This document shows positions 1,164 to 7,557 of a stretch of 7,557 nucleotides of DNA, piece by piece. The stretch's first letter is position 1; every line of letters starts with the position of its first letter. The notes below the pieces were generated by a model. It was not told where the DNA came from. It was given only the letters and a program-made list of their open reading frames with translations, and searched no databases. The DNA is taken from the NCBI GenBank assembly GCA_000004985.1, contig GG739131.1; one strand, 5' to 3'. Position numbers and translations under genes: made by a program. This DNA is from Naegleria gruberi (Eukaryota).

Positions 1164-1311
1164 TTAATAATTTGGATCTAAAGGATGAGTTTGTCTTTTT
1201 GAAGGAATATGAAACGTTGTATAATTTCCCTTCTTATCATCATGTAAAATATCTTGAACATAATTAATTTGTCTAAAATCTCTTCGTTGTATAGGAAAAG
1301 TGCTTGATAAG
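1164..1311 (-). CDS. 3' end of an unidentified protein-coding gene. The C-terminal 48 codons are visible and the body lies in the N gap. Stop codon TAA at 1164-1166 (complement).
   Basis: Minus-strand frame is open for 48 codons from the gap edge: ...LSSTFPIQRRDFRQINYVQDILHDDKKGNYTTFHIPSKRQTHPLDPNY*. GC is ~27%, coding-like against the 16% spacer. Third positions are almost all A/T with aga, caa and tta preferred. I recognise no family. A 40-codon antisense ORF overlaps it on the plus strand (1146-1266), so the strand call is not certain. Confidence 0.4.
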
Positions 1312-4300
1312 NNNNNNNNNNNNNNNNNNNNNNNNNNNNNNNNNNNNNNNNNNNNNNNNNNNNNNNNNNNNNNNNNNNNNNNNNNNNNNNNNNNNNNNNN
1401 NNNNNNNNNNNNNNNNNNNNNNNNNNNNNNNNNNNNNNNNNNNNNNNNNNNNNNNNNNNNNNNNNNNNNNNNNNNNNNNNNNNNNNNNNNNNNNNNNNNN
1501 NNNNNNNNNNNNNNNNNNNNNNNNNNNNNNNNNNNNNNNNNNNNNNNNNNNNNNNNNNNNNNNNNNNNNNNNNNNNNNNNNNNNNNNNNNNNNNNNNNNN
1601 NNNNNNNNNNNNNNNNNNNNNNNNNNNNNNNNNNNNNNNNNNNNNNNNNNNNNNNNNNNNNNNNNNNNNNNNNNNNNNNNNNNNNNNNNNNNNNNNNNNN
1701 NNNNNNNNNNNNNNNNNNNNNNNNNNNNNNNNNNNNNNNNNNNNNNNNNNNNNNNNNNNNNNNNNNNNNNNNNNNNNNNNNNNNNNNNNNNNNNNNNNNN
1801 NNNNNNNNNNNNNNNNNNNNNNNNNNNNNNNNNNNNNNNNNNNNNNNNNNNNNNNNNNNNNNNNNNNNNNNNNNNNNNNNNNNNNNNNNNNNNNNNNNNN
1901 NNNNNNNNNNNNNNNNNNNNNNNNNNNNNNNNNNNNNNNNNNNNNNNNNNNNNNNNNNNNNNNNNNNNNNNNNNNNNNNNNNNNNNNNNNNNNNNNNNNN
2001 NNNNNNNNNNNNNNNNNNNNNNNNNNNNNNNNNNNNNNNNNNNNNNNNNNNNNNNNNNNNNNNNNNNNNNNNNNNNNNNNNNNNNNNNNNNNNNNNNNNN
2101 NNNNNNNNNNNNNNNNNNNNNNNNNNNNNNNNNNNNNNNNNNNNNNNNNNNNNNNNNNNNNNNNNNNNNNNNNNNNNNNNNNNNNNNNNNNNNNNNNNNN
2201 NNNNNNNNNNNNNNNNNNNNNNNNNNNNNNNNNNNNNNNNNNNNNNNNNNNNNNNNNNNNNNNNNNNNNNNNNNNNNNNNNNNNNNNNNNNNNNNNNNNN
2301 NNNNNNNNNNNNNNNNNNNNNNNNNNNNNNNNNNNNNNNNNNNNNNNNNNNNNNNNNNNNNNNNNNNNNNNNNNNNNNNNNNNNNNNNNNNNNNNNNNNN
2401 NNNNNNNNNNNNNNNNNNNNNNNNNNNNNNNNNNNNNNNNNNNNNNNNNNNNNNNNNNNNNNNNNNNNNNNNNNNNNNNNNNNNNNNNNNNNNNNNNNNN
2501 NNNNNNNNNNNNNNNNNNNNNNNNNNNNNNNNNNNNNNNNNNNNNNNNNNNNNNNNNNNNNNNNNNNNNNNNNNNNNNNNNNNNNNNNNNNNNNNNNNNN
2601 NNNNNNNNNNNNNNNNNNNNNNNNNNNNNNNNNNNNNNNNNNNNNNNNNNNNNNNNNNNNNNNNNNNNNNNNNNNNNNNNNNNNNNNNNNNNNNNNNNNN
2701 NNNNNNNNNNNNNNNNNNNNNNNNNNNNNNNNNNNNNNNNNNNNNNNNNNNNNNNNNNNNNNNNNNNNNNNNNNNNNNNNNNNNNNNNNNNNNNNNNNNN
2801 NNNNNNNNNNNNNNNNNNNNNNNNNNNNNNNNNNNNNNNNNNNNNNNNNNNNNNNNNNNNNNNNNNNNNNNNNNNNNNNNNNNNNNNNNNNNNNNNNNNN
2901 NNNNNNNNNNNNNNNNNNNNNNNNNNNNNNNNNNNNNNNNNNNNNNNNNNNNNNNNNNNNNNNNNNNNNNNNNNNNNNNNNNNNNNNNNNNNNNNNNNNN
3001 NNNNNNNNNNNNNNNNNNNNNNNNNNNNNNNNNNNNNNNNNNNNNNNNNNNNNNNNNNNNNNNNNNNNNNNNNNNNNNNNNNNNNNNNNNNNNNNNNNNN
3101 NNNNNNNNNNNNNNNNNNNNNNNNNNNNNNNNNNNNNNNNNNNNNNNNNNNNNNNNNNNNNNNNNNNNNNNNNNNNNNNNNNNNNNNNNNNNNNNNNNNN
3201 NNNNNNNNNNNNNNNNNNNNNNNNNNNNNNNNNNNNNNNNNNNNNNNNNNNNNNNNNNNNNNNNNNNNNNNNNNNNNNNNNNNNNNNNNNNNNNNNNNNN
3301 NNNNNNNNNNNNNNNNNNNNNNNNNNNNNNNNNNNNNNNNNNNNNNNNNNNNNNNNNNNNNNNNNNNNNNNNNNNNNNNNNNNNNNNNNNNNNNNNNNNN
3401 NNNNNNNNNNNNNNNNNNNNNNNNNNNNNNNNNNNNNNNNNNNNNNNNNNNNNNNNNNNNNNNNNNNNNNNNNNNNNNNNNNNNNNNNNNNNNNNNNNNN
3501 NNNNNNNNNNNNNNNNNNNNNNNNNNNNNNNNNNNNNNNNNNNNNNNNNNNNNNNNNNNNNNNNNNNNNNNNNNNNNNNNNNNNNNNNNNNNNNNNNNNN
3601 NNNNNNNNNNNNNNNNNNNNNNNNNNNNNNNNNNNNNNNNNNNNNNNNNNNNNNNNNNNNNNNNNNNNNNNNNNNNNNNNNNNNNNNNNNNNNNNNNNNN
3701 NNNNNNNNNNNNNNNNNNNNNNNNNNNNNNNNNNNNNNNNNNNNNNNNNNNNNNNNNNNNNNNNNNNNNNNNNNNNNNNNNNNNNNNNNNNNNNNNNNNN
3801 NNNNNNNNNNNNNNNNNNNNNNNNNNNNNNNNNNNNNNNNNNNNNNNNNNNNNNNNNNNNNNNNNNNNNNNNNNNNNNNNNNNNNNNNNNNNNNNNNNNN
3901 NNNNNNNNNNNNNNNNNNNNNNNNNNNNNNNNNNNNNNNNNNNNNNNNNNNNNNNNNNNNNNNNNNNNNNNNNNNNNNNNNNNNNNNNNNNNNNNNNNNN
4001 NNNNNNNNNNNNNNNNNNNNNNNNNNNNNNNNNNNNNNNNNNNNNNNNNNNNNNNNNNNNNNNNNNNNNNNNNNNNNNNNNNNNNNNNNNNNNNNNNNNN
4101 NNNNNNNNNNNNNNNNNNNNNNNNNNNNNNNNNNNNNNNNNNNNNNNNNNNNNNNNNNNNNNNNNNNNNNNNNNNNNNNNNNNNNNNNNNNNNNNNNNNN
4201 NNNNNNNNNNNNNNNNNNNNNNNNNNNNNNNNNNNNNNNNNNNNNNNNNNNNNNNNNNNNNNNNNNNNNNNNNNNNNNNNNNNNNNNNNNNNNNNNNNNN

Positions 4301-6689
4301 NNNNNNNNNNNNNNNNNNNNNNNNNNNNNNNNNNNNNNNNNNNNNNNNNNNNNNNNNNNNNNNNNNNNNNNNNNNNNNNNNNNNNNNNNNNNNNNNNNNN
4401 NNNNNNNNNNNNNNNNNNNNNNNNNNNNNNNNNNNNNNNNNNNNNNNNNNNNNNNNNNNNNNNNNNNNNNNNNNNNNNNNNNNNNNNNNNNNNNNNNNNN
4501 NNNNNNNNNNNNNNNNNNNNNNNNNNNNNNNNNNNNNNNNNNNNNNNNNNNNNNNNNNNNNNNNNNNNNNNNNNNNNNNNNNNNNNNNNNNNNNNNNNNN
4601 NNNNNNNNNNNNNNNNNNNNNNNNNNNNNNNNNNNNNNNNNNNNNNNNNNNNNNNNNNNNNNNNNNNNNNNNNNNNNNNNNNNNNNNNNNNNNNNNNNNN
4701 NNNNNNNNNNNNNNNNNNNNNNNNNNNNNNNNNNNNNNNNNNNNNNNNNNNNNNNNNNNNNNNNNNNNNNNNNNNNNNNNNNNNNNNNNNNNNNNNNNNN
4801 NNNNNNNNNNNNNNNNNNNNNNNNNNNNNNNNNNNNNNNNNNNNNNNNNNNNNNNNNNNNNNNNNNNNNNNNNNNNNNNNNNNNNNNNNNNNNNNNNNNN
4901 NNNNNNNNNNNNNNNNNNNNNNNNNNNNNNNNNNNNNNNNNNNNNNNNNNNNNNNNNNNNNNNNNNNNNNNNNNNNNNNNNNNNNNNNNNNNNNNNNNNN
5001 NNNNNNNNNNNNNNNNNNNNNNNNNNNNNNNNNNNNNNNNNNNNNNNNNNNNNNNNNNNNNNNNNNNNNNNNNNNNNNNNNNNNNNNNNNNNNNNNNNNN
5101 NNNNNNNNNNNNNNNNNNNNNNNNNNNNNNNNNNNNNNNNNNNNNNNNNNNNNNNNNNNNNNNNNNNNNNNNNNNNNNNNNNNNNNNNNNNNNNNNNNNN
5201 NNNNNNNNNNNNNNNNNNNNNNNNNNNNNNNNNNNNNNNNNNNNNNNNNNNNNNNNNNNNNNNNNNNNNNNNNNNNNNNNNNNNNNNNNNNNNNNNNNNN
5301 NNNNNNNNNNNNNNNNNNNNNNNNNNNNNNNNNNNNNNNNNNNNNNNNNNNNNNNNNNNNNNNNNNNNNNNNNNNNNNNNNNNNNNNNNNNNNNNNNNNN
5401 NNNNNNNNNNNNNNNNNNNNNNNNNNNNNNNNNNNNNNNNNNNNNNNNNNNNNNNNNNNNNNNNNNNNNNNNNNNNNNNNNNNNNNNNNNNNNNNNNNNN
5501 NNNNNNNNNNNNNNNNNNNNNNNNNNNNNNNNNNNNNNNNNNNNNNNNNNNNNNNNNNNNNNNNNNNNNNNNNNNNNNNNNNNNNNNNNNNNNNNNNNNN
5601 NNNNNNNNNNNNNNNNNNNNNNNNNNNNNNNNNNNNNNNNNNNNNNNNNNNNNNNNNNNNNNNNNNNNNNNNNNNNNNNNNNNNNNNNNNNNNNNNNNNN
5701 NNNNNNNNNNNNNNNNNNNNNNNNNNNNNNNNNNNNNNNNNNNNNNNNNNNNNNNNNNNNNNNNNNNNNNNNNNNNNNNNNNNNNNNNNNNNNNNNNNNN
5801 NNNNNNNNNNNNNNNNNNNNNNNNNNNNNNNNNNNNNNNNNNNNNNNNNNNNNNNNNNNNNNNNNNNNNNNNNNNNNNNNNNNNNNNNNNNNNNNNNNNN
5901 NNNNNNNNNNNNNNNNNNNNNNNNNNNNNNNNNNNNNNNNNNNNNNNNNNNNNNNNNNNNNNNNNNNNNNNNNNNNNNNNNNNNNNNNNNNNNNNNNNNN
6001 NNNNNNNNNNNNNNNNNNNNNNNNNNNNNNNNNNNNNNNNNNNNNNNNNNNNNNNNNNNNNNNNNNNNNNNNNNNNNNNNNNNNNNNNNNNNNNNNNNNN
6101 NNNNNNNNNNNNNNNNNNNNNNNNNNNNNNNNNNNNNNNNNNNNNNNNNNNNNNNNNNNNNNNNNNNNNNNNNNNNNNNNNNNNNNNNNNNNNNNNNNNN
6201 NNNNNNNNNNNNNNNNNNNNNNNNNNNNNNNNNNNNNNNNNNNNNNNNNNNNNNNNNNNNNNNNNNNNNNNNNNNNNNNNNNNNNNNNNNNNNNNNNNNN
6301 NNNNNNNNNNNNNNNNNNNNNNNNNNNNNNNNNNNNNNNNNNNNNNNNNNNNNNNNNNNNNNNNNNNNNNNNNNNNNNNNNNNNNNNNNNNNNNNNNNNN
6401 NNNNNNNNNNNNNNNNNNNNNNNNNNNNNNNNNNNNNNNNNNNNNNNNNNNNNNNNNNNNNNNNNNNNNNNNNNNNNNNNNNNNNNNNNNNNNNNNNNNN
6501 NNNNNNNNNNNNNNNNNNNNNNNNNNNNNNNNNNNNNNNNNNNNNNNNNNNNNNNNNNNNNNNNNNNNNNNNNNNNNNNNNNNNNNNNNNNNNNNNNNNN
6601 NNNNNNNNNNNNNNNNNNNNNNNNNNNNNNNNNNNNNNNNNNNNNNNNNNNNNNNNNNNNNNNNNNNNNNNNNNNNNNNNNNNNNNNNN
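1312..6689. other. 5,378-nt run of N (assembly gap or masked segment). No sequence information.
   Basis: Unbroken n characters. The ORF-track entries 1300..6693 and 1304..6697 are translations of this run (poly-X) from GTG/TTG pseudo-starts to the first stop after the gap, and are artefacts. Confidence 1.
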
Positions 6690-6773
6690 TTAGATGAGCA
6701 GTTAATAGATTTTTTAATTATACTTTCGAATGAAAATTATTCTAAAAAATTATCATTTTTTAATAATAGAGAA

Positions 6774-7557
6774 ATGAATGATGAATTAAAAGATGTACAT
6801 GAATTTTTTAAAATAGATAGAGAAATTGTGTTAGAAGCTGTTAAACAAAATGGTTATGCATTGAAATATGCTGATGATTCACTTAAAAAAGATAGAGAAA
6901 TTGTGTTAGAAGCTGTTAAACAAAATAGTTATGCATTGAAATATGCTGATGATTCACTTAAAAAAGATAGAGAATTTATATTAGAAGCTGTTAAACAAAA
7001 TAGTTATGCATTTGAATTTGCTGATGATTCACTTAAAATAGATACAGAAATTGTATTACAAGCTGTCAAAAAAATTGAAAACATAGAGAAAATATGGAAT
7101 AATGTTTATTCAAGTATTTTGGAGAAATATGGGTTTGAAATTATTTCATTTATTGGTTATTGTTATTATTTTACATTTAAAGTATATGATAGAAGTAGAA
7201 AAAAAATTGTTGTAGTGGGAATTATTGAAAACATATTAAAAGAAACACTTAAGTTTTTAAAAAGAGTTAACTTTCAGTCTAACATTAAAAAAGTAGAGTG
7301 TGTTAGAACTGATGAGATTAGTTTTGATGTTATGGAATTCGTATCACTTGAAGATTACATTTATAATACTAATTCTAAAACTATTATTGAAAAACTTGGT
7401 ATTTTTATTAAAATACTTGATTTAGTACAATCATTTCATAATAAGAATATTGTAATAACAAATTTAAATCCTAATAATATTTTATTAATGGAAAATGATG
7501 AATTAAAATTTATAGATTTTTCATTAAATTTTGAATATTTAGCACCTGAGGTATTGA
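6774..7557 (+). CDS. Partial CDS: DUF4116-like 25-aa tandem repeats followed by a degenerate protein-kinase-like (predicted pseudokinase) domain. The 3' end runs off the window. The frame is also open upstream to the gap edge at 6690.
   Basis: Frame 3 (codon starts divisible by 3) has no stop from 6690 to 7557 (289 codons). First ATG at 6774 (MNDELKDVHEFFKI...). The 63-84 nt upstream of it are ~13-17% GC, UTR-like, against ~28% downstream, so I favour 6774 as the start without excluding an upstream extension. The translation contains (DREIVLEAVKQNGYALKYADDSLKK)x3+ and then the kinase-like subdomains listed in the next feature. Confidence 0.8.
   Translation, partial: MNDELKDVHEFFKIDREIVLEAVKQNGYALKYADDSLKKDREIVLEAVKQNSYALKYADDSLKKDREFILEAVKQNSYAFEFADDSLKIDTEIVLQAVKKIENIEKIWNNVYSSILEKYGFEIISFIGYCYYFTFKVYDRSRKKIVVVGIIENILKETLKFLKRVNFQSNIKKVECVRTDEISFDVMEFVSLEDYIYNTNSKTIIEKLGIFIKILDLVQSFHNKNIVITNLNPNNILLMENDELKFIDFSLNFEYLAPEVL
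6816..7082 (+). repeat. In-frame 75-bp tandem repeat. Three full units (6816-6890, 6891-6965, 6966-7040) and a degenerate fourth (7041-~7082). It encodes a 25-aa repeat DREIVLEAVKQN[GS]YALKYADDSLKK.
   Basis: Units 1 and 2 differ at 1 of 75 nt (ggt to agt, G to S). Unit 3 differs from unit 2 at 7 of 75 nt, all amino-acid-changing (I to F, V to I, L to F, K to E, Y to F, K to I). Unit 4 keeps D-T-E-I-V-L-Q-A-V-K-K and then diverges into the kinase-like domain. Confidence 0.9.
7128..7557 (+). other. Protein-kinase-like domain within the CDS above, truncated by the window end. Catalytic motifs are degenerate.
   Basis: A glycine-loop-like IGYCYYFTFKVYD (7152-7190) precedes KKIVVVGII, where Gly (7218-7220) occupies the invariant VAIK-lysine position. 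The alphaC/beta4-5 region reads LKFLKRVNFQSNIKKVECV...DVMEFVSLEDY. The catalytic loop is FHNKNIVITNLNPNNILL (7437-7487), against canonical HRDLKPENILL: ITN replaces HRD, and LNPNN replaces LKPEN. DFS (7515-7523) replaces DFG. Only four residues (LNFE) separate it from YLAPEVL (7536-7556). Confidence 0.65.

Follow-up and report, generated by a model that had tools for sequence, protein, structure and literature searches.

What can a protein do with a kinase fold that has lost most of its phosphotransfer chemistry and nearly all of its activation segment? The question is raised by the end of a 7,557-nucleotide stretch of DNA (hereafter the window), where a first-pass annotation made from the letters alone had described such a fold lying directly after DUF4116-like repeats. 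On the plus strand, frame 1 runs from 6690 to 7556, up to the end of the window, through 289 codons without a stop, while the other five frames carry 12-60 stops each across the same interval; in 2000 shuffles of this DNA (about 22% GC) the longest open frame was 145 codons and the mean 60. The annotation had placed the start of the frame at ATG 6774; it is already open at 6690, at the edge of a run of N, and the true gene start probably lies inside that run. Intron read-through or a frameshift was considered as the source of the odd features and ruled out, since the frame is unbroken and DUF4116 or kinase alignments account for every segment; nor could read-through explain a short activation loop, because genomic read-through adds residues and never removes them. 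We lean towards reading the locus as a lineage-specific, catalytically inert kinase fold that is tethered to an alpha-solenoid and acts as a docking module. The frame divides as follows, in positions of the window:

6690 to 6809, plus strand: unassigned N-terminal segment of the open reading frame, 40 codons (LDEQLIDFLIILSNENYSKKLSFFNNREMNDELKDVHEFF), stop-free and in frame with the rest
6810 to 7034, plus strand: three full DUF4116 units of 25 amino acids (75 nucleotides), KIDREIVLEAVKQNGYALKYADDSL, KKDREIVLEAVKQNSYALKYADDSL and KKDREFILEAVKQNSYAFEFADDSL, from Pfam and TRF
7035 to 7127, plus strand: degenerate fourth DUF4116 unit (beginning KIDTEIVLQAVKK) and short helical linker (IENIEKIWNNVYSSILEK) to the kinase N-lobe, from the repeat register
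7128 to 7556, plus strand: kinase-like domain, 143 amino acids, subdomains I-VIII only, from Pfam, phmmer and Foldseek

The N-terminal segment had no match in a Pfam search, and AF2 models it as helices with pLDDT of 66-86. The repeats that the annotation had placed directly upstream of the kinase part are confirmed both by the Pfam match to DUF4116 (PF13475; 132.7 bits, where the cut-off is 24.9; E 3.2e-39), in tandem units of about 25 amino acids, and by TRF, which finds a 75-nucleotide period in 3.6 copies with 92% matches and ends the array at 7075. The array is 60-70% identical to units of many metagenomic and Naegleria proteins, and it shares with DUF4116 repeat proteins the prediction of a helical repeat, specifically an alpha-solenoid (PMC8078820); AF2 models the three full units as helical at pLDDT 94-98, and a long helix follows at residues 119-147, in the region of the fourth unit and linker. 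The three near-identical units differ from one another by 2-8 nucleotides, and all of these differences are non-synonymous. This bears on a second reading, possible though doubtful, in which a recently duplicated DUF4116-kinase gene has lost its catalytic residues, has suffered an in-frame deletion of its activation loop, and is becoming a functionless pseudogene. The count of 0 synonymous against 2-7 non-synonymous differences between units fits such a decaying copy and weighs against the docking module, but relaxed constraint and recent duplication explain it equally well, and the numbers are too small to tell neutrality from selection (seven of seven non-synonymous, p about 0.13 under neutrality).

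The homology of 7128 to 7556 to eukaryotic protein kinases is well supported by sequence comparison. The match to the Pfam Pkinase profile (PF00069) is significant at E 3.2e-6, which upholds the annotation's assignment, but its 27.2 bits stay under the curated cut-off of 31.7. The match covers no more than positions 42-144 of the 263 in the profile, since the window stops at the APE motif, and the sequence is divergent besides. The end of the window cuts the domain 2 codons past APE, so that half of the C-lobe, with helices alphaF-alphaI (subdomains IX-XI), lies outside. A phmmer search of the PDB returned MARK4 as the best match (2.4e-5), with MARK4, AMPK, Snf1 and PhK at 2e-5 to 1e-4 and the CAMK-group matches as a whole, MELK included, at 2e-5 to 1e-3, and phmmer against 1.84 billion representative proteins gave 142 matches at E<=1e-3, with all of the roughly 40 that were fetched or aligned being protein kinases. 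The nearest solved sequences appear to be of the CAMK type (MARK, AMPK, Snf1, PhK, MELK), only at about 1e-5 and with STE20 and PknB matches close behind. With the CAMK group (MARK, AMPK/Snf1, PhK gamma, MELK) the domain shares motif order and hydrophobic core, whereas identity is only about 25-30%, and those kinases are active, keep K, HRD and DFG intact and have about 20-25 residues in the activation loop. An AF2 model of the 143 amino acids, guided by a kinase alignment, reached a pLDDT of 75.8 with a beta-rich N-lobe, alphaC, alphaD/E and catalytic-loop strands. With this guided model, Foldseek placed CDK5, PhK, Aurora and AMPK on top in the PDB (E about 1e-7, TM about 0.5), and the 50 top matches listed were all protein kinases. 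That the model is driven by an alignment of real kinases counts against our preferred reading, as does the model of the whole fragment from a mixed alignment, in which the DUF4116 part is good but the kinase N-lobe is helical and of low confidence (pLDDT 28-64).

Motifs were placed with three alignments: phmmer against PDB kinases, phmmer against library kinases, and a MAFFT alignment of 35 sequences (the query and 34 kinases). They agree that subdomains I-VIII (G-loop, beta3, alphaC, hinge, catalytic loop, DFG and APE) are collinear, as the annotation had observed, with several of them substituted:

7152 to 7172, plus strand: degenerate glycine-rich loop IGY-CYYF (phmmer and MAFFT alignments)
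7209 to 7220, plus strand: beta3 VVVG, under VA(I/V)K (alignments)
7218 to 7220, plus strand: Gly177 (GGA) where kinases have the beta3 (VAIK) lysine (Lys in all 34 aligned kinases)
7329 to 7340, plus strand: hinge VMEF, Glu retained (alignments)
7455 to 7478, plus strand: catalytic loop ITNLNPNN, under HRDLKPEN (alignments)
7515 to 7523, plus strand: DFS in place of DFG, with Asp276 and Phe277 kept and Gly changed to Ser (alignments)
7524 to 7541, plus strand: activation-segment remnant LNFEYL, six residues (DFS-APE spacing, MAFFT)
7542 to 7550, plus strand: APE, within YLAPEVL, under xYxAPE (MAFFT)

All three methods concur on K to G, HRD to ITN, DLKPEN to NLNPNN and DFG to DFS. The glycine-rich loop is shorter by one residue and retains only the first Gly of GxGxxG, with aromatic residues where the other glycines would be. 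At beta3, pairwise phmmer lines up KKIVVVG with KKIVAVK; as read from the sequence, the change of Lys to Gly (AAA to GGA) runs against the AT mutational bias and so would not be simple drift towards AT. The placement of the alphaC Glu differs by method (E185 in phmmer, T186 in MAFFT). Within the catalytic loop His has become Ile, Arg has become Thr, the catalytic Asp has become Asn258 (7461-7463), and Lys and Glu have both become Asn, while the final Asn263, a metal ligand, is kept. The annotation's statement that all catalytic residues are substituted therefore holds for the beta3 Lys, the HRD Asp and the catalytic-loop Lys and Glu, but not for the DFG Asp (D276) or the catalytic-loop Asn (N263). 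A pseudokinase is recognised from sequence by the loss of at least one of K72, D166 and D184 in PKA numbering (PMC3218828, PMC4718504). Here two are missing, K72 (Gly177) and D166 (Asn258), and D184 is kept (Asp276); the 34 aligned kinases have K, D and D in these columns without exception. By this standard the prediction of a pseudokinase stands.

The retained D276 and N263 leave room for an atypical but active enzyme, in which the remaining metal ligands would bind nucleotide and phosphotransfer would proceed through relocated residues, as in WNK kinases, or by a different chemistry of the SelO/SidJ type. HER3 and the JAK2 JH2 domain do bind nucleotide with Asn for the HRD Asp, and JAK2 JH2 is weakly active (PMC4718504). 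We nevertheless consider this very improbable: unlike in HER3 and JAK JH2, the beta3 Lys is missing as well; two of the three G-loop glycines are gone; the third loop Gly, where a WNK-like relocated Lys would sit, is Tyr, which led us to reject that assignment; and there is neither an activation loop nor a P+1 loop to hold a peptide substrate.

The connector between DFS and APE is extremely short. Four residues (LNFE) separate DFS from YLAPE, as the annotation had counted in calling the loop vestigial, and six separate DFS from APE, against a median DFG-to-APE spacing of 23 and a shortest genuine spacing of 13 among 146 instances in the 142 matched proteins; in the MAFFT alignment the six residues face a gap of about 24 columns. 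A chance APE was rejected as unlikely on composition, since the 143 amino acids of the kinase part hold a single Ala, which lies in APE, and two Pro, of which one lies in APE, giving an expectation of about 2.5e-5 per position. We also rejected membership of the RIO/Bud32/Kdo type, which is naturally without an activation loop: the Kdo match (PF06293; E 0.004-0.016) is below cut-off and weaker than Pkinase, and YLAPE is clear. Short activation loops have been documented in other pseudokinases, namely JAK JH2, BSK8, NFR5 and EphB6 (PMC4718504, PMC6628658, PMC7586955).

Is the pattern of losses that of decay? The active site has been struck several times independently, and a deletion has been added, which is what a decaying copy would show. 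Against this, of the 44 columns with conserved hydrophobicity the query has a hydrophobic residue in 39 (other kinases average 97%, with a minimum of 86%), and of the 19 conserved polar or Gly columns it keeps only 9, with losses that cluster in the active site (Fisher p = 0.0009). Neutral decay should strike both classes, so the retention of the core with the loss of active-site polar residues points to constraint on the fold and not on catalysis. APE, the DFG Asp and Phe, and the catalytic-loop Asn have been retained as well, and 289 stop-free codons against a shuffle maximum of 145 also speak against a pseudogene.

The scaffold itself is of doubtful quality. It contains a run of 5378 N (1312-6689), and at about 905-912 there is an inverted junction between two pieces of pyruvate kinase: minus-strand sequence from the middle of the enzyme, reaching from 1 to about 900 of the window, and plus-strand sequence at 913-978 with the final 22 codons and the stop. 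Both defects count against the docking module, and the rearranged look of the neighbouring pyruvate kinase would also suit a decaying region. They would also fit an assembly artefact, in which a collapsed or chimeric join has either brought DFS and APE so close together or fused DUF4116 to the kinase part, from what is really an ordinary kinase or two genes; that the sequence ends 7 bases past APE agrees with this too. Even so, we judge it quite unlikely, for such a join leaves K to G, HRD to ITN, DFG to DFS and the degenerate G-loop unexplained, both junctions are in frame within continuous, N-free sequence, and the degenerate fourth DUF4116 unit merges gradually into the linker with no abrupt break. 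Rfam, tRNA, and promoter and terminator scans found no relevant feature. The nearest relatives of the flanking pyruvate kinase are the enzymes of Willaertia magna (81% identity) and, next, Acrasis kona (71%), both of them Heterolobosea, so the source is probably heterolobosean and not amoebozoan; the affinity to Dictyostelium and other Amoebozoa that the annotation had suggested is thereby set aside.

Relatives of the fragment were sought in several collections. The kinase part had no match among 5.8 billion proteins in a word-indexed search, phmmer against the 1.84 billion representatives returned generic kinases only and no close relative, and no related locus was found on viral and metagenome contigs. 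Exact matching of 47-mers against genome, viral and metagenome collections, aimed at a contig with the rest of the C-lobe, found nothing. The top phmmer match (P0001) was dismissed as a relative, being a plant-RLK-like catalytic-loop segment repeated 15-fold. Searching with all 289 amino acids yielded 120 DUF4116 proteins, which matched the DUF4116 part only; none of these best 120 carries a kinase domain, and none of the best 142 kinase matches carries DUF4116, in keeping with the earlier remark that the combination was unfamiliar. The contigs of two of the best DUF4116 matches (L002, L003) look prokaryote-like, with no kinase nearby. In Willaertia magna the locus of the pyruvate kinase (L001, 21.6 kb) has neither a DUF4116 nor a kinase counterpart up to 10 kb from that gene, and a tblastn match of 28 amino acids there (20596-20679, E 0.38) falls in sequence that looks non-coding and was set aside as noise. 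The missing counterpart, and the finding of nothing closer than generic kinases in the libraries searched, favour a decaying lineage-specific copy, and that these searches gave neither orthologue nor paralogue weighs against the proposed docking module. That roughly half of the domain falls outside the window and that the Pkinase score is below the cut-off also tell against that reading. An unlikely extension of it is a conserved, Heterolobosea-specific family of DUF4116-solenoid pseudokinases, permanently "loop-less" and serving as a rigid docking or nucleotide-sensing module, in which the activation segment would have been pared down to the 6-residue connector and the metal-binding Asp and Asn and the APE anchor would be kept.

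Several known systems resemble the fragment in part. Integrin-linked kinase (ILK) combines ankyrin repeats with a pseudokinase and works as an adaptor or scaffold; it too places N-terminal helical repeats directly before a kinase fold without a catalytic base, but it retains the beta3 Lys and ATP binding, its activation segment is of normal length, and in sequence the two are related only as members of the kinase superfamily. The Nek pseudokinases of Giardia are, as the fragment would be, lineage-specific protist proteins that join a very divergent kinase domain, lacking residues of the K72/D166/D184 type, to helical repeats; they are fast-evolving and often without orthologues, and their repeats influence localisation, which was altered when one ankyrin repeat was deleted (PMC3218828). 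There, however, the ankyrin repeats follow the kinase, whereas DUF4116 lies N-terminal to it here, and in the present case the nearest active kinases are CAMK-like instead of Nek and only one copy is seen, with no family expansion. JAK JH2 and HER3 share the Asn in place of the catalytic Asp (D166), a partly degraded Gly-rich loop and a kept Asn171 equivalent, and JH2 has an "abnormally short activation loop" (PMC4718504); they differ in keeping the beta3 Lys and binding nucleotide, in having activation loops that are short yet far exceed 6 residues, and in their domain contexts (FERM-SH2-JH2-JH1 and a receptor tyrosine kinase). In NFR5, a LysM receptor pseudokinase, and in EphB6 the Gly-rich loop is also degenerate and the activation loop truncated or degraded; NFR5 is inactive in vitro, and both work by partnering other proteins (PMC6628658, PMC7586955). 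In NFR5 APE is missing and DFG altered, whereas APE and the DFG Asp and Phe are kept here, and both proteins are transmembrane receptors, whereas no membrane segment is seen in the present fragment. Pseudokinases acting as scaffolds or switches have been described (PMC7586955).

In the docking-module reading, 6690-7556 would belong to a single exon in the nuclear genome of an AT-rich heterolobosean amoeba related to Willaertia, and would encode a DUF4116 alpha-solenoid that a short helix connects to a divergent domain of the Ser/Thr-kinase type, apparently nearest to CAMK-type kinases. The fold would have been retained and the phosphotransfer chemistry lost, with no beta3 Lys, catalytic Asp or catalytic-loop Lys and with a glycine-rich loop filled by aromatic residues. 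A connector of 6 residues leaves no phosphorylatable loop and no peptide-binding platform, and with chemistry and activation segment both lost, the most likely mode of action is non-catalytic. We infer that the domain can neither bind ATP nor catalyse and that it serves as a scaffold: the kinase-fold module may be rigid and constitutively "switchless", offering a surface for protein-protein docking, and the solenoid may provide localisation or a second binding surface, by analogy with ankyrin-repeat pseudokinases.

What the window holds is a fragment of a dead kinase of a fairly ordinary kind. Pseudokinases make up about 10% of most kinomes, and lineage-specific, orphan, repeat-fused examples are common in protists. 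With only half a domain available, no relatives and a doubtful scaffold, the find is for now worth an annotation note, and no long-standing question is opened. A Heterolobosea-specific family, if true, would offer the first lead to a function for the DUF4116 repeat, which is uncharacterised. If the gene is real and expressed, it would add another protist fusion of a helical repeat array with a dead kinase fold, would present an unusually extreme loss of the activation segment with APE retained, and would link the DUF4116 repeat to kinase-type signalling scaffolds.

Informative bases occupy only 1-1311 and 6690-7557 of the window; the 5378 positions between them (1312-6689) are N, and this run hides the N-terminus of the DUF4116-kinase gene together with anything lying between that gene and the pyruvate kinase at the left end. 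ORFs at 1300-6693 and 1304-6697 are artefacts of translated N. From 6690, frame 1 stays open for 289 codons and runs right to the window end, and the remaining five frames hold 12-60 stops; when the same bases were shuffled 2000 times, the longest open frame had a mean length of 60 codons and a maximum of 145. This frame encodes a DUF4116 array followed by a kinase-like part of 143 amino acids (7128-7556).

Features of the open frame (residue numbers are those of the 289-amino-acid fragment)
6810-7034: three near-identical DUF4116 units
7152-7172: G-loop GxGxxG, first Gly alone kept, one residue shorter
7218-7220: beta3 Lys changed to Gly177
within 7455-7478: catalytic-loop HRD changed to ITN, its Asp to Asn258
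within 7455-7478: catalytic-loop DLKPEN changed to NLNPNN
7515-7523: DFG changed to DFS

The Pfam match to DUF4116 (E 3.2e-39, 132.7 bits against a cut-off of 24.9) and a tandem repeat of 75-nt period (3.6 copies, 92% matches) confirm the DUF4116-like array that the first-pass annotation had placed directly before the kinase-like part; a fourth, degenerate unit grades into a short helical linker. DUF4116 is a predicted alpha-solenoid of unknown function (PMC8078820), and when all 289 residues were modelled by AlphaFold2 from a mixed alignment, the helical repeats came out at pLDDT 94-98. The N-lobe is helical in that model, at pLDDT 28-64, and we treated it as uninformative for the kinase part. 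The three near-identical units differ from one another at 2-8 nt, with 0 synonymous and 2-7 non-synonymous codons, a pattern that hints at a tandem duplication of very recent date under selection either relaxed or diversifying, the counts being too few to decide. Most similar to the window repeats are DUF4116 proteins from two metagenomic loci, with up to 72% identity over repeat units, on short contigs whose dense packing gives them a prokaryote-like look. Repeat units are thus highly alike in distant organisms and carry no taxonomic signal for the window.

Homology of the kinase-like part to protein kinases is seen in several searches. The Pfam Pkinase match (E 3.2e-6, 27.2 bits) falls under the curated cut-off of 31.7; with the window breaking off at that point, it is limited to positions 42-144 of the 263 in the profile. 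Against PDB sequences, phmmer returned MARK4/3, PhK-gamma, AMPK and Snf1 at 2e-5 to 1e-4, aligning HNKNIVITNLNPNNILL..FIDFSLNFEY opposite HQKNIVHRDLKAENLLL..IADFGFSNEF, and an exhaustive phmmer search of 1.84 billion representatives gave 142 proteins at E<=1e-3 among the matches listed; those fetched or aligned were protein kinases without exception. The best-scoring library protein (E 1.7e-20) has 1069 aa with about 15 tandem plant-RLK-like alphaE/catalytic-loop/DFG segments; its score is a sum of repeats, the gene was probably assembled or predicted wrongly, and we rejected it as a relative. An AlphaFold2 model of the 143 aa with a kinase alignment (mean pLDDT 75.8) has N-lobe strands, alphaC, alphaD/E and catalytic-loop strands, and all 50 Foldseek matches listed from the PDB are protein kinases (CDK5, PhK, Aurora, TNIK, AMPK; E about 1e-7, TM about 0.5). 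Model and Foldseek result are supportive of a predicted kinase fold, a support that is not independent because the input alignment consisted of kinases.

Within this fold the first-pass annotation had listed a series of active-site substitutions, and these are real, since the phmmer PDB, pairwise and MAFFT alignments agree on the registers. Pairwise alignment with matches that cover the N-lobe sets KKIVVVG under KKIVAVK and IGY-CYYF under IGEGAFG, and MAFFT with 35 sequences returns the same registers, inserting about 24 gap columns to separate DFS-LNF from EYLAPE. The statement that all catalytic residues are substituted is overstated, because Asp and Phe of DFG, Asn263 of the catalytic loop, the hinge Glu, APE and K273 (the Lys two residues before DFG) are retained. 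The alphaC Glu is ambiguous, E185 by phmmer and T186 by MAFFT.

The activation segment is nearly deleted, as had been proposed: DFS and APE are separated by six residues (LNFEYL, 18 nt), against a median of 23, mostly 19-28, over the 146 DFG..APE spacings measured among the 142 matched proteins. A chance APE is made unlikely by composition (one Ala and two Pro in the whole 143-aa part; expectation about 2.5e-5 per position). Intron read-through, too, was rejected as the origin of the short spacing, for it cannot shorten a loop and the intervening 18 nt are continuous and in frame. The shortest genuine spacing, 13, belongs to a bacterial-type tandem kinase, P0005 (residues about 330-590), whose second domain has HQN for HRD and 13 residues from DFG to SPE, an independent case of Asp-to-Asn loss plus a shortened activation segment. 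At the window end, 7548-7557 reads GAG GTA TTG A, and GAG|GTATTG, directly after APE, might equally be taken for a splice-donor-like site.

The left end of the window bears on the source of the DNA and on its assembly. On the minus strand, the stretch 1 to about 900 carries the central part of a pyruvate kinase of eukaryote type (residues about 103/141-440; Pfam PK E 1.5e-105), for which the top PDB matches are eukaryotic enzymes, mammalian PKM among them. Its closest database match is Willaertia magna at 81% identity and the next Acrasis kona at 71%; both are Heterolobosea. G+C is about 26% in the non-N sequence of the window and 23.5% at the W. magna pyruvate-kinase locus, which we regard as the same base composition. 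A heterolobosean amoeba with AT-rich DNA is therefore the most likely source, in place of the amoebozoan first supposed. The final 22 residues and stop lie on the plus strand (913-978; tblastx of 913-987 against W. magna, 100% identity over 25 translated codons), with a strand junction at about 905-912, and the W. magna gene is one uninterrupted ORF. The rearrangement could stem from inversion of about 1.2 kb (the segment for residues 103-498) or from an assembly chimera. Convergent with this plus-strand 3' end, the last part of a further ORF comes out of the N stretch on the minus strand (1164-1310, ending in LSSTFPIQRRDFRQINYVQDILHDDKKGNYTTFHIPSKRQTHPLDPNY and TAA at 1164-1166); it has no Pfam match and no similarity to the kinesin downstream of pyruvate kinase in W. 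magna. Together, the strand junction, the N run and a sequence end 7 bases past APE mean that the short DFS-APE connector may be an assembly artefact, but such an artefact has no power to explain the point substitutions in the kinase-like part.

Constraint was gauged by an internal column test. Of 44 alignment columns in which hydrophobic residues make up at least 85% in real kinases, 39 are hydrophobic in the query too (other aligned sequences: mean 97%, minimum 86%); of 19 columns in which a single polar residue or Gly predominates, the query keeps only 9, a difference in retention with Fisher p = 0.0009. The losses cluster in the active site (K, HRD, catalytic-loop K, DFG G, HPN). A fold kept with its chemistry lost is the pattern of functional pseudokinases and is unexpected under uniform decay; the all-non-synonymous differences between DUF4116 units speak against constraint, in counts too small to be decisive.

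No relative closer than generic kinases was found in a word-indexed set of 5.8 billion proteins or in the 1.84 billion representatives, nor was anything closer to the kinase-like part found in viral and metagenome contigs. An exact 47-mer search for the source contig had no match in three DNA collections (genomes, viruses, metagenomes). The full fragment matches at least 120 DUF4116 proteins over the repeat part only; among the matches listed, Pfam detects a kinase domain in none of the 120 and phmmer no similarity to the kinase part, and DUF4116 is absent from all 142 kinases. Around pyruvate kinase in W. magna, 10 kb in either direction, there is no counterpart of the DUF4116 or kinase part. 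As far as these searches show, the kinase-like domain is an orphan, and none of the nearest listed relatives of either half has the fusion, which does not prove the architecture unique.

ILK has repeats followed by a pseudokinase, the order found in the window fragment. In most kinomes, K72, D166 or D184 (PKA numbering) is missing from about 10% of the kinases, which are believed to act in signalling as scaffolds; of the Giardia Neks, 139 are predicted to be inactive and 133 of 198 carry ankyrin arrays, and deleting one repeat of an inactive Nek changed its localisation (PMC3218828). NFR5 combines a degenerate G-loop with a truncated activation loop (PMC6628658), and the activation loop of EphB6 is short and degraded (PMC7586955). 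The fragment differs from these systems in its repeat type, DUF4116, in having lost both K72 and D166 while retaining D184, N171 and APE, and in its extremely short DFS-APE connector.

The reading of a predicted pseudokinase after DUF4116 repeats thus stands in part, shorn of its "all" and of its taxon, and with half a domain visible. The domain would be a catalytically inert kinase fold, lacking both a catalytic base and the Lys that would grip the phosphates of ATP, and with Tyr/Tyr/Phe filling the lid of the nucleotide pocket; with the activation and P+1 loops absent, neither phospho-regulation nor peptide binding would be possible. Rigidly tethered to the DUF4116 alpha-solenoid, it may serve as a docking or allosteric module, the array offering a second binding or localisation surface. 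From kinase structure-function knowledge and these precedents we infer no ATP binding and a scaffold role. A predicted dead kinase of this sort would be an instance of a phenomenon common in protist kinomes.
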